Positions 16,894-23,315 of a DNA stretch of 64,000 bases are shown here, one piece after another. Both the position numbers and the translations under genes were made by a program. Each line of letters opens with the position of its first letter. The first letter of the stretch is position 1. The notes below the pieces were generated by a model that was not told the origin of the DNA, searched no databases, and saw nothing but the letters and a program-made list of their open reading frames with translations. The DNA comes from a virus (lineage: Duplodnaviria > Caudoviricetes), in IMG/VR virus record IMGVR_UViG_3300028601_000020, one strand, 5' to 3'.

Positions 16894-17118
16894 ATGCGTG
16901 ATTTTCGCGTTTATGGTGATTGTGAAGACTACTTGATTGTTTATCTTCCAGAAGAAATTAAATTGTTTTCCGGAGTCATGCGAATGGATTTTGTTTATGA
17001 TTCCGAATATTTTTCAAAATTGTTTGCTGATGGTTGGAAAATTCTCACCATCAGCCACAAGGAAAACACCATCAATGAAAACACCATAACTCTTTACAAG
17101 AAACATGCCGATAACTGA
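16894..17118 (+). CDS. Hypothetical protein (tandem paralog A)
   Basis: AAGGAGG RBS; RMDFVYDSEYFSKLFADGWKIL. Confidence 0.65.
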   Translation: MRDFRVYGDCEDYLIVYLPEEIKLFSGVMRMDFVYDSEYFSKLFADGWKILTISHKENTINENTITLYKKHADN

Positions 17119-17296
17119 AGACGTTAAGGAGAATATAATGACAATTGAGCTGCCTAATTTAATGAAAAATTACACCGGAATTGACCGGATGAATTTCATA
17201 TATAATTCTGAACTGTTTGCAAAATACTTTGCTGACGGTTGGAAGATTCTCAGTATATTTCATGGACAGAATAAAGTAACCCTTTACAAACCTTAA
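17105..17296 (+). CDS. Hypothetical protein (tandem paralog B)
   Basis: RMNFIYNSELFAKYFADGWKIL. Confidence 0.65.
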   Translation: MPITEDVKENIMTIELPNLMKNYTGIDRMNFIYNSELFAKYFADGWKILSIFHGQNKVTLYKP

Positions 17297-17310
17297 AAAT
17301 CAGGATCAAA

Positions 17311-17772
17311 ATGGATTCGGAATTACTCAAAGCAATTGACGATTGGCTTTTCAAAAACGAAAAGAAATATGCGGAGGCCATAAAGAAAAAGAAAGCCATC
17401 ATCCCAGATCATTTCAAAAAGTACACAAAAGAACTATACCGTGGAATGGTCGTTGACGCTGACTTTTTGAAACTGGTTTCAGAAGGGAAAATGACGTTCA
17501 AGGACATTACTTCATGGTCCAAGTCTGAAAAGATGGCATTGGCTTTTATCAAAGACAAGCGATATAAAATTTCAGTCAAGTCAGGTGTGAATATTTTGAT
17601 CACAAAAAAGATTCCGCCGTCTAAAATTATTCTTGACATTCATAATCTGGTATTGTTTACTGGAGGTATAGGACTGGATGAGTTAAGCGTGGATTCTGCA
17701 TACAAGGAACAAGAGATCCTTGTTGACAAAGGAATCAAAATCACAGAAAAAGACATTACGGTTTTAAAATGA
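17311..17772 (+). CDS. Putative ADP-ribosyltransferase-fold protein
   Basis: LYRG...TSWS....A..F...EQEILV, i.e. the R-S-ExE motif order. Confidence 0.6.
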   Translation: MDSELLKAIDDWLFKNEKKYAEAIKKKKAIIPDHFKKYTKELYRGMVVDADFLKLVSEGKMTFKDITSWSKSEKMALAFIKDKRYKISVKSGVNILITKKIPPSKIILDIHNLVLFTGGIGLDELSVDSAYKEQEILVDKGIKITEKDITVLK

Positions 17773-17957
17773 ACGAAACAGAAGAGAAAAAAGTCAACAT
17801 CCCAGAAGTGTACGAATGTCCCGTAGAGTTTCAGATTATTTTTGAAAATTCTGCTGGACAAAGAATTCACGGATATATTGAAGCAACTGGATGGGATGAC
17901 ATTGAAGAAAAAATTAAGCCATGTATTCTTGTAAGCACGTTTCGGGTTGTACGCTAA
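17769..17957 (+). CDS. Hypothetical protein
   Basis: ATGA overlap with the upstream gene. Confidence 0.55.
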   Translation: MNETEEKKVNIPEVYECPVEFQIIFENSAGQRIHGYIEATGWDDIEEKIKPCILVSTFRVVR

Positions 17958-17995
17958 AAAGTAGCGGTGTAGCTCAATGGTAGAGCAAGCGAAGT

Positions 17996-18679
17996 TCATT
18001 TCAATTTCGTCTTGAACCCGCGTCTTCTAAAAGAATGACACAATCCACTCACAGAAAAACTAAGATTGTTTTGTTTAATGAATTCAGAATATGATAAGTT
18101 TGAATTAATATAAGATAAAAACAAATCAAAATAATATTTTTCTGTGAGTTTCTTTTTTTCTGATTCTCTTGGATTTTGTCGGGTACCCTTTGTTTGTTTT
18201 TTTATGTAATGATTTTTGTTTATTATTCTTCCTTTTTCACACCCATTGTCTAAATATGTCTGAAGATCGGATTTAGGAACTTTTCTTGAAATAAGAGTAT
18301 AAGGACAGTAAATCCATGTTGTGCCGTATTGAGAGTTGTTTTCGCCTTGTTGGAGAACTGACATTGATTCTGCAAAAAGTTTTCTGTGTTTTTCATAAAG
18401 GCGAGAATTCCAGTATCTTTTTCGGTTATTGCTCGTGGCATTCATCATATTAAATGCTTTAATGAGTTTCCAAAATTTGGGGGATTTTGTTGGAACCATT
18501 TTAATTAAAAGATAATGACAAAGAAAGTGTTTCCTTGCGGAAAGAGAAACGAGATTTAAGGTATCGTCGGAACCACCCAAACACCTTGGGATAATATGAT
18601 GGTTTTCGGTATAATCGTCTGTGTCTGACGATGAAGTGAGTTTGAAATAAAGTTTTGTGTATTTGTTTTTTAGAAACAT
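17996..18679 (-). CDS. HNH homing endonuclease (Mob-like, free-standing)
   Basis: NKYTKLY...YTENHHIIPRCLGGSD...NLV.LSARKHFLCHYLL.KM, plus GENNSQYGT.WI. Confidence 0.88.
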   Translation of the reverse strand: MFLKNKYTKLYFKLTSSSDTDDYTENHHIIPRCLGGSDDTLNLVSLSARKHFLCHYLLIKMVPTKSPKFWKLIKAFNMMNATSNNRKRYWNSRLYEKHRKLFAESMSVLQQGENNSQYGTTWIYCPYTLISRKVPKSDLQTYLDNGCEKGRIINKNHYIKKQTKGTRQNPRESEKKKLTEKYYFDLFLSYINSNLSYSEFIKQNNLSFSVSGLCHSFRRRGFKTKLK

Positions 18680-18718
18680 ACTGAAATTCCTTGACTGTTT
18701 AAATTAAAAGTATATACT

Positions 18719-18726
18719 TATTTATA
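18719..18726 (-). promoter_or_regulatory. T4-type late promoter for the HNH gene
   Basis: Exact TATAAATA on the minus strand, 40 nt upstream of the start codon. Confidence 0.75.
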
Positions 18727-18768
18727 TAATCAAAGAATTAACCGCTTCCAAACAAAACAGGAGCCGCC

Positions 18769-19020
18769 ATGCAGCATGTTGAAACTGAAATTCCGGTTGG
18801 GTTTGCACCTTTCGCTGTTAGTATTAAGATTGAAAGTGTTGAGGATGCAATCAAGATTTATTCACTGTTCAATTGCGCCTCTGTCACCGAAAGTTTTGAA
18901 ATTCCTGATAAAGTACATTATGATATCAGGAATCATATCTTGAGTAAATGTCCCGAAGCTGGTTATTACAAACAGTTTTTTGAAGAAGCAGTAAACAAAT
19001 TATCAGTAAAAAACAGATGA
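18769..19020 (+). CDS. Hypothetical protein (paralog of 3449..3706)
   Basis: AGGAG RBS. Confidence 0.65.
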   Translation: MQHVETEIPVGFAPFAVSIKIESVEDAIKIYSLFNCASVTESFEIPDKVHYDIRNHILSKCPEAGYYKQFFEEAVNKLSVKNR

Positions 19021-19463
19021 AAACACCAATGAAAAGTGACATTGAAATCATAATGGATCATCCGCTAGATGATGTGGTCCGTTTAATGCTAAAACATATG
19101 GAGGATTGGAAAGTATCAAGAATAAGAGGTGAATTGAAACCGCACTGGTCAGACGGAATGTATGGTAACTGGTCAACCGAAGACCCTTTATTGAAAGTGG
19201 TCTTTGTTCCCAGCGGTAAAGATTGGGTGACTTCAAGAGATACATACTCGGGTGACGTTGAAAGAGATTTAGTCAATATTTCTGAGTGTAAATTGTGTGG
19301 AGAAGCATTAGTAAATGATGAAAGATTTGCAAGCGAATTCTATAGTCATTTATTCGCAAAATGTAAAATAGCCGGAGAGTTAATGAAATCATCCAAATCA
19401 GAAGATGAATTCAGAGAGAAAGTTTCCCAAGTTATCAAATCGTCGGAGAAAAATGAGAATTAA
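19017..19463 (+). CDS. Hypothetical protein
   Basis: ORF with CKLC...H...C. Confidence 0.6.
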   Translation: MKTPMKSDIEIIMDHPLDDVVRLMLKHMEDWKVSRIRGELKPHWSDGMYGNWSTEDPLLKVVFVPSGKDWVTSRDTYSGDVERDLVNISECKLCGEALVNDERFASEFYSHLFAKCKIAGELMKSSKSEDEFREKVSQVIKSSEKNEN

Positions 19464-19962
19464 ACAAAATTGGATGTATTTTAAATATTTGATTCGCCAC
19501 AAATATTATGTTATGAAAGCGTGCTACATGCTTGGATTAGGAACGTGGGCAGGACTGAAACATGATATGAGCAAGTTTCTTCCTTCTGAATGGATTCCAT
19601 ACAAGGAATGTTTTTATGACGATACCGGAAAAAAGCGTTATCTTGAAACGGATGAATTTCTTGATGCATGGTTTCTTCATCAAAAGCGAAACAAGCACCA
19701 CTGGCAATATTGGCTTTTGGTTTTTGATAGAGGAGAAATCCGAGCAGTAAAAATGCCAGAAAGATACATGATTGAAATGGTAGCTGATTGGATAGGAGCA
19801 GGAATAGCGATTACCGGCAAGATGGAAGTTTGGGAATGGTACAAAGCAAATAGAAATAATATGACGCTTCATCCGGAAACAAGAAACGACGTTGAAACGC
19901 TTTTGCATTGGGCAAAAATAGAGCATGACAAAAAGGAGAAACATGTATTGCAAAGAAATTAA
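19453..19962 (+). CDS. DUF5662-like (HD-related, His-rich) protein
   Basis: RHK..V, HDMSKF.PSEW.PY, AW..HQKRNKHHWQYW, MP..Y..EMVADW.GAG. Confidence 0.75.
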   Translation: MRIKQNWMYFKYLIRHKYYVMKACYMLGLGTWAGLKHDMSKFLPSEWIPYKECFYDDTGKKRYLETDEFLDAWFLHQKRNKHHWQYWLLVFDRGEIRAVKMPERYMIEMVADWIGAGIAITGKMEVWEWYKANRNNMTLHPETRNDVETLLHWAKIEHDKKEKHVLQRN

Positions 19963-22610: not shown

Positions 22611-23315
22611 TTGAAGAATCTGATAATCCCTTTCATTGTTTCTTTTTTTGTATTTGCTCCAGCAGAATGTTTTACCAGTTCAACCGACCAATCCTATTTC
22701 AAATACAAATACAACAAAAAAACAGCAAAAGAAAGGATCATAAAAAATTACAAGGATTCTTTTTTTGTCAAGAAACCAAAGAAGATTCAAACAGAAAAAC
22801 CAGTCAAAACCAAAAAAGATGAAAGCGGCTCGCTTTTCGCCGAATTCAAAAATTTACGAAAACAATTATTAGGAGATTCAGAAGTGGAAAAAGTTCTCAA
22901 TATAACAAATTCAGACAGACATTGGCTTGCGTTAAATATTTTTCACGAAGCTAGAGGTGAAAATCTTCACGGTAAAATGGCCGTTGCTTTTGTGACTTTA
23001 AATAGAGTTGTTCACAGAGCATGGCCAGATACTATCAAAGATGTTGTTACACAGCCTTATCAATTTTCGTGGTATAATTCAAAGAAAGTACCTCCTATCA
23101 CCGCTGCCCAACAAAAATCATGGGAAGAATGTAAAAGAGTTGCAGACCTTTCAATTGAGTTGTATAATTCTATGGCAGAATCAGAAGAATTTGTAGTTGA
23201 CGGTTTAACACGCGGAGCAGACCATTATTTTGCAGATTACATCAAACCACCTAAGTGGGCTGCAAAAATGGCATATCAAGCAAAAGTGGGTCGGCATTTG
23301 TTTTACAAGATGTAA
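22611..23315 (+). CDS. SleB-like cell wall hydrolase (Hydrolase_2) with signal peptide
   Basis: LALNIFHEARGE...GKMAVA.VTLNRV...WP.TIKDVV.Q..QFSW...GADHYFADYI.PPKWA...VG.HLFYK. Confidence 0.9.
   Translation: MKNLIIPFIVSFFVFAPAECFTSSTDQSYFKYKYNKKTAKERIIKNYKDSFFVKKPKKIQTEKPVKTKKDESGSLFAEFKNLRKQLLGDSEVEKVLNITNSDRHWLALNIFHEARGENLHGKMAVAFVTLNRVVHRAWPDTIKDVVTQPYQFSWYNSKKVPPITAAQQKSWEECKRVADLSIELYNSMAESEEFVVDGLTRGADHYFADYIKPPKWAAKMAYQAKVGRHLFYKM

Follow-up and report, generated by a model that had tools for sequence, protein, structure and literature searches.

A predicted Mob-like HNH homing endonuclease gene interrupts a tRNA-Gln gene in an uncultured T4-like phage

Group I intron-encoded homing endonucleases occur in bacterial and cyanobacterial tRNA genes. 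In phages, homing endonuclease genes (HEGs) are already known from tRNA regions, and Mob-type HEGs are known from the inside of other genes. An example of the first kind is SegB, which is encoded between T4 tRNA genes and recognizes a 27-bp site with the T-psi-C stem-loop as its core (PMC2330249; PMC2988022 Table 1). SegB cuts inside the tRNA genes of phages that lack SegB (PMC2330249; PMC2988022), and its homologues co-localize with tRNAs (PMC13096335). Further HEGs, F-TflI/II/IV, are found in the tRNA clusters of T5 (PMC2330249). Free-standing HEGs often or usually cut apart from their own insertion site, and those inside genes include mobE in Aeh1 nrdA and mobA in T4 gene 60/39 (PMC2988022). 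A literature search, partial in coverage and therefore weak evidence of absence, returned no report of an intron-less HEG that interrupts and inactivates a tRNA gene.

The window analyzed here is a 64,000-nt stretch of DNA from a virus (Duplodnaviria; Caudoviricetes; record IMGVR_UViG_3300028601_000020), an uncultured, T4-like phage. A preliminary description of the window had proposed that an HNH cassette invaded and destroyed a tRNA gene, and had invoked SegB as precedent; the precedent is apt, as SegB recognizes the T-psi-C stem-loop DNA of tRNA genes (PMC2330249). Like T4 SegB, the gene at this locus is a free-standing HEG in a phage tRNA region, is absent from close relatives and has its own late promoter; SegB targets tRNA-gene DNA, a target that we infer for the enzyme described here. 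SegB is a GIY-YIG enzyme encoded between intact tRNA genes, which it spreads, whereas this gene is of the HNH type and lies inside a tRNA gene, eliminating the tRNA. The resemblance to T4 MobA-E is that of a Mob-like HNH gene, free-standing, that landed inside a host gene. However, the split protein halves at mobE/nrdA and mobA/60/39 assemble into a working enzyme, whereas tRNA function is lost here; unlike the Aeh1 nrdA “genes in pieces,” a tRNA whose anticodon loop and T arm are gone cannot keep its function.

The F-TflI/II/IV genes of T5, together with genes of Vibrio phage VB_VaC_SRILMA, Rhizobium phage LG08 and Synechococcus phage S-CBWM1, are likewise HEGs embedded in tRNA clusters. In contrast to the gene in the window, the full-length relatives in SRILMA, LG08 and S-CBWM1 touch or overlap tRNAs that are annotated as intact, and none is reported to interrupt a tRNA. 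Group I intron endonucleases share with this locus an endonuclease gene in a tRNA gene near the anticodon loop; unlike them, the locus has no ribozyme match, its open reading frame (ORF) is antisense, 33 nt of the tRNA are deleted and no splicing is possible. The novelty lies in the association of a Mob-like HNH lineage with tRNA loci, and in a member of that lineage that inactivates a tRNA gene without an intron.

Two tRNA-Gln ends around an HNH cassette

In the window, plus-strand genes reach position 17957, and the next plus-strand gene begins at 18769. The features of this interval and its two neighbors are listed by window coordinates and strand; L001, L002, L003 and L005 are related viral contigs.

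17769..17957, plus strand: left flanking gene, 62 aa, no assigned function (ORF list; an orthologue precedes the tRNA in L001, L002 and L005)
17963..17992, plus strand: tRNA-Gln 5' remnant, tRNA positions 1-31 (alignment of the relatives' tRNAs)
17993..18740, minus strand: inserted HNH cassette, ~748 bp (missing from L001, L002 and L005; same junctions in L003)
17995..18009, plus strand: T-arm-like stretch TTCATTTCAATTTCG (13/15 matches to the L001 T arm, local alignment)
17996..18679, minus strand: predicted Mob-like HNH free-standing homing endonuclease gene, 227 aa, intact (phrog_655, tblastn)
18688..18692, minus strand: ribosome-binding site AAGGA, 8 nt 5' of the HNH ATG (direct read)
18691..18718, plus strand: candidate sigma70-type promoter TTGACT-16 nt-TATACT (promoter scan, 10/12 matches)
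18719..18726, minus strand: T4-type late promoter TATAAATA, 40 nt 5' of the HNH start codon (exact match)
18741..18750, plus strand: tRNA-Gln 3' remnant ACCGCTTCCA (identical to the tRNA 3' ends of L001 and L005)
18769..19020, plus strand: right flanking gene, 83 aa, no assigned function (an orthologue follows the intact tRNA-Gln in L001/L002)

The 5' remnant consists of the acceptor 5' strand, the D arm, position 26 and the 5' strand of the anticodon stem. Its first 24 nt (17963-17986; AGCGGTG TA GCTC AATGGTA GAGC by direct read) are identical to the intact L001 tRNA, and they lie just beyond the HNH stop codon (17996-17998, minus strand), where the preliminary description had placed a tRNA 5' part. 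That description stopped short of the full extent, as tRNA identity continues for six more bases, to 17992. The remnant bases AAGCGA have the counterparts AAGCGG in L005 and TGGCGA in L001. The 3' remnant (18741-18750; ACCGCT-T-CCA) supplies positions 67-72 of the acceptor 3' strand, the discriminator T and an encoded CCA. It stands, as had been noted, just past the late promoter, at a distance of 15 nt, and is followed by AACAAAA, as in L001.

The cassette occupies the place of tRNA positions ~32-66 (33 nt in L001), and has thus replaced the anticodon loop, the 3' strand of the anticodon stem, the variable loop and the T arm. ARAGORN identified no tRNA in the whole 64 kb window, and Rfam identified no tRNA and no group I/II intron at E<=10 in positions 17000-19800, as expected of a tRNA gene without its anticodon loop and 3' half. 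The earlier observation that the T arm and 3' anticodon strand are not visible is therefore borne out by both programs, with the qualification that 17995-18009 gives an ambiguous 13/15 match to a T arm. The same blank searches exclude a group I intron and a split or permuted functional tRNA. With only positions 1-31 and 67-76 left, we read the tRNA-Gln gene as dead in the window allele, with the HNH gene antisense inside it.

The preliminary description had named chance, or membership in another element, as ways in which the match could mislead. A chance match is excluded by the 24-mer, which is the start of an intact tRNA at the syntenic position in relatives, and by the rarity of ACCGCTNCCA, which occurs once in 64 kb (both strands) vs. 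0.12 expected. The 3' piece is absent from the compared copies of the window's repeated early-promoter cassettes, so it is not part of those.

The left end of the cassette is ambiguous and may be placed anywhere from 17993 to 18009. When the cassette was shuffled, 5/2000 shuffles reached the T-arm score of TTCATTTCAATTTCG within the first 40 nt, and 66/2000 reached it cassette-wide. Read on the opposite strand, positions 17995-18009 are the last four codons of the HNH gene (TKLK) and its stop codon. We favor a junction at the start of the anticodon loop (17993), with the T-arm-like stretch as part of the cassette; this boundary coincides with that inferred for the homologue P0008, described below. 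Somewhat less favored is an entry of the cassette into the 3' strand of the T stem, with three bases lost, plus a separate 13-nt deletion that would have taken the anticodon loop and 3' stem strand and is possibly a cleavage-site scar. By either reading, TTCATTTCAATTTCG appears as microhomology between the HEG 3' end and tRNA T arms. Microhomology between tRNA and segB has been implicated in SegB-driven amplification (PMC13096335), and the T-arm-like end of the HNH gene may be a sign of similar rearrangements driven by microhomology.

Based on its own predicted late promoter and ribosome-binding site, and on its position outside any detected intron or intein, the HNH gene is classed as free-standing. 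The promoter motif TATAAATA occurs 11 times in the window vs. 3.75 +/- 1.86 expected, and 0/100 shuffles reached 11. The sigma70-like promoter within the cassette points outward and may drive the downstream genes, given its match to the consensus only. In L001, an alternative promoter-like site (TTGACA-17-CATTAT) lies between the tRNA and the 83-aa orthologue, where the window has 18 nt. For T4, it has been discussed that an embedded host promoter would favor retention of an HEG (PMC2988022).

Intact and interrupted alleles in related phages

An exact search of viral contigs with the 24-mer returned three contigs, and querying with the DUF5662 protein encoded downstream added L005. In L001 and L002, the 24-mer begins a 73-nt tRNA-Gln(UUG) (ARAGORN; Rfam tRNA 50.3 bits, cut-off 29), which lies between the orthologue of the 62-aa gene and that of the 83-aa gene and ends in CACCGCT-T-CCA followed by AACAAAA, as in the window. 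L005 carries a diverged but intact tRNA-Gln(UUG) at the equivalent place (Rfam tRNA 57.3 bits, cut-off 29), so that intact lengths across the three contigs are 73-74 nt. The anticodon stems of the intact alleles (GGCGA/TCGCC vs. AGCGG/CCGCT) differ by compensatory changes, as expected under selection, and these argue that the tRNA is functional where it is present. In the HNH-less 66-kb and 25-kb contigs, tRNA-Gln is the sole tRNA, and no HNH homologue was found anywhere.

The window and the HNH-less contigs share 88-95% identity in the DNA flanking the locus. Homology in blastn ends at 17991 with L005 and at 17996 with L001; it restarts at 18741, the tRNA 3' end, for L001. For L005, whose right flanking gene is shorter because the first half of the 83-aa gene is missing, it restarts at 18946. 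Thus, the cassette is present in the window and L003 and absent from L001, L002 and L005 at a syntenic locus, and related phages without the HNH gene do have a tRNA there. The intact tRNA-Gln between the same flanks supports the proposal that the cassette invaded and destroyed a tRNA gene. The sample comprises two independent HNH-bearing contigs (the window and L003) and two kinds of intact allele. When the locus was compared with deposited phages by megablast, no match was obtained, and a 17-mer scan for further alleles gave just unrelated tRNAs and coding coincidences.

L003 has the same insertion with both junctions identical. The window and L003 differ at 9 positions in 788 nt, all within the ORF, and the tRNA remnants have 0 substitutions. 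Identity between the two is 98-100% across 17819-18818, 93.6% to the left and 85% to the right; a tract of this kind between less similar sides would fit a recent exchange of the cassette with short flanks.

Several other features of these contigs were recorded. The region right of the tRNA is hyperplastic (window 18769-19463 vs. L001:5339-5600 and L005:3440-4030), and a 148-aa gene (window 19017-19463) is absent from L001. To the left, a 153-aa early protein (window 17311-17772, plus strand) matches phrog_27460 (E 4e-24) and, weakly, an “RNA polymerase ADP-ribosylase” PHROG (E 0.0066), with homologues in Vibrio phage phiKT1024 and Sinorhizobium phiM12-like phages. L003 contains a second, unrelated HNH homing-endonuclease gene (L003:9223-10080, minus strand; 285 aa with GxNNPxxGK repeats) directly after a cell-wall-hydrolase-like gene, at ~23205-23305 in window terms; it is missing from the window and represents another HEG presence/absence polymorphism. 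In two unrelated GC-rich viral contigs (L264 and L266), the tRNA 5' 17-mer is followed by CAGAGC without a callable tRNA, which could be a tRNA-fragment attachment site.

A Mob-like HNH lineage at phage tRNA loci

The HNH ORF matches phrog_655, annotated “homing endonuclease,” with E 1e-36, and scores 17.2 bits against Pfam HNH, under the 21.4 cut-off. By tblastn, about a thousand phage records match; several of those listed are MobE, MobD-like, homing or HNH endonucleases of T4-like phages. Residues H27, H28, N42, H51 and H55 are invariant in 15 homologues, and a profile of the homologues matches the HNH domains of solved structures (E 0.0013). Family searches returned HNH families only, with no GIY-YIG catalytic domain. 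The AF2 model (pLDDT 78.6) has an N-terminal beta-beta-alpha region, and its C-terminal three-helix unit (residues 169-227) weakly resembles the Fis/NtrC helix-turn-helix (VIA-align, Z 5.0-5.5); Foldseek found no significant match for the whole model. Among homologues, the N-terminal 160 residues are retained and the C-terminal regions are swapped, which conforms at the sequence level to the modular pattern of homing endonucleases.

The closest homologues (P0002-P0012) are 53-87% identical to the window protein, and scans of viral and metagenome contigs with the protein or its alignment returned, L003 aside, only relatives of <=55% identity. From these contigs we assembled 125 non-redundant loci that encode HNH relatives. 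A tRNA lies within 1 kb at 8/13 loci whose match spans >=150 aa, with one further tRNA at 1.4 kb; the corresponding count for matches to the nuclease core only is 0/112. The HNH genes are usually antisense to the tRNAs and tail-to-tail with the tRNA 3' end, 1-50 nt off or overlapping. Three cultured phages, among the fullest matches (82-96% protein coverage, 30-40% identity), were checked: in SRILMA the HNH relative overlaps the start of a tRNA-Thr, in LG08 it is followed by tRNA-Asn and tRNA-Gln, and in S-CBWM1 it lies between tRNA-Asn and tRNA-Cys. This Mob-like HNH lineage is specifically tied to phage tRNA loci, and in several phages fusion at the DNA level between the end of an HEG and that of a tRNA is routine. 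Six other loci were searched for pieces of tRNA beside the related HNH genes, with intact tRNAs as the only finding apart from one sub-threshold match. To our knowledge, the lineage has had no study.

Individual overlaps vary in extent. In L171, the HNH ORF ends at L171:3166, running antisense through the T arm of a tRNA at L171:3117-3194. In the records of SRILMA and LG08 (L271, PP083314.1, and L272, PP429226.1), the HNH ORF overlaps the annotated tRNA start by 10 nt.

Two of the closest homologues, P0007 and P0008 (~60% identical), share the entire C-terminal domain and the terminal ...TKLK. P0008 has no stop codon and continues as L-MEAVPEIESR; the antisense translation of the tRNA-Gln 3' end reads MEAVSMIEME in L005 and LEAVSGIELN in L001. 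By this match, 4 nt separate the end of the P0008 gene from the CCA of a tRNA that, as read through its antisense translation, has the same acceptor strand, discriminator and T loop.

Proposed homing into the intact tRNA gene and its alternatives

The explanation that we regard as probable is a Mob-type HEG cassette within tRNA-Gln(UUG) that is expressed late and homes into the intact allele. The HNH gene would be transcribed late from its own TATAAATA promoter. In a mixed infection, the enzyme would cut the rival's intact tRNA-Gln, in or near the segment that the carrier lacks, and recombinational repair off the HEG-bearing genome would copy the cassette, and with it the tRNA knock-out, into the rival. 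The carrier lacks the stretch running from the anticodon loop through the T arm and would be immune. What we infer here is that the protein is an active nuclease, which sequence it targets and that it homes; by analogy with SegB, we lean toward the view that co-infecting relatives have their intact tRNA-Gln allele cut by the enzyme and receive a copy of its gene through recombinational repair. Cutting of tRNA-gene DNA is made more credible by the occurrence of the HNH lineage at tRNA loci and of P0008 at a like tRNA. A wider proposal, to be held only tentatively, is that the HNH clade recognizes tRNA-gene DNA and destroys its own target as self-immunity, spreading the knock-out among the phages of the population. 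Because related HNH genes lie between intact tRNAs, the disruption seen here may instead have arisen by accident, through illegitimate insertion, and not as a strategy.

The strongest alternative, though an unlikely one, is that the homing element is genuine but its target is elsewhere (a flanking protein gene or tRNA-like DNA), with the tRNA lost as a dispensable bystander of a single illegitimate insertion. This would agree with the tendency of free-standing HEGs to cut apart from their insertion site (PMC2988022), with the related HNH genes of other phages that sit between intact tRNAs, and with junctions that lack obvious long homology. However, the orthologue P0008 also adjoins a tRNA whose acceptor end is the same, and the association of the whole lineage with tRNA loci suggests that tRNA DNA is what the enzyme recognizes. 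The T arm, which forms the core of the SegB recognition site (PMC2330249), is also part of the segment deleted here.

Decay or domestication is improbable. If the HNH gene were no longer an active mobile element and were inherited vertically with the dead tRNA, a single insertion event would suffice for the identical junctions in both carriers. Its ORF is nevertheless full length with conserved catalytic residues, and its promoter and ribosome-binding site are intact. The differences between the window and L003 are mostly synonymous (7 synonymous, 2 nonsynonymous), by which the gene has stayed open and looks constrained, and the near-identical tract between more diverged sides suggests recent exchange.

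The preliminary description had also raised the idea that the tRNA ends pair in early plus-strand read-through RNA, so that RNase P and 3' processing free an antisense RNA against the HNH mRNA. RNase P normally uses the T arm, and a related idea has the retained ends act as a natural intramolecular external guide sequence (acceptor-like stem, 3' UCCA), with the antisense RNA silencing the HNH gene until its late promoter fires; we consider this guide-sequence version very doubtful. The processing scheme itself is the least credible of all: the MFE and centroid folds of 17958-18755 do pair both ends and retain the D hairpin, and a plus-strand terminator was not found within the interval, but the folded interval was picked to finish at both pieces, the stem has 6 bp (the seventh pair is G/A) across ~770 nt without a T arm, the promoter-like plus-strand site in the cassette would yield transcripts lacking the 5' piece, and the preserved ends are fully explained by recency, the remnants being free of substitutions.

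The lost tRNA-Gln(UUG) reads CAA, the preferred Gln codon of the phage (384 CAA : 148 CAG), so the knock-out is probably costly, or it is compensated in a part of the genome outside the window. The intact and HEG-disrupted tRNA-Gln genes form a natural allele pair, in phages that are otherwise 88-95% identical, and with this pair, homing into an RNA gene without an intron can be tested directly. That HEGs associate with phage tRNA loci is known from the GIY-YIG enzyme SegB; a Mob-like HNH lineage, widespread among phages whether cultured or uncultured, acquired this association independently. If the enzyme cuts tRNA-gene DNA, selfish elements would remove phage tRNA genes besides spreading them; such removal, if true, bears on the evolution of phage tRNA repertoires.
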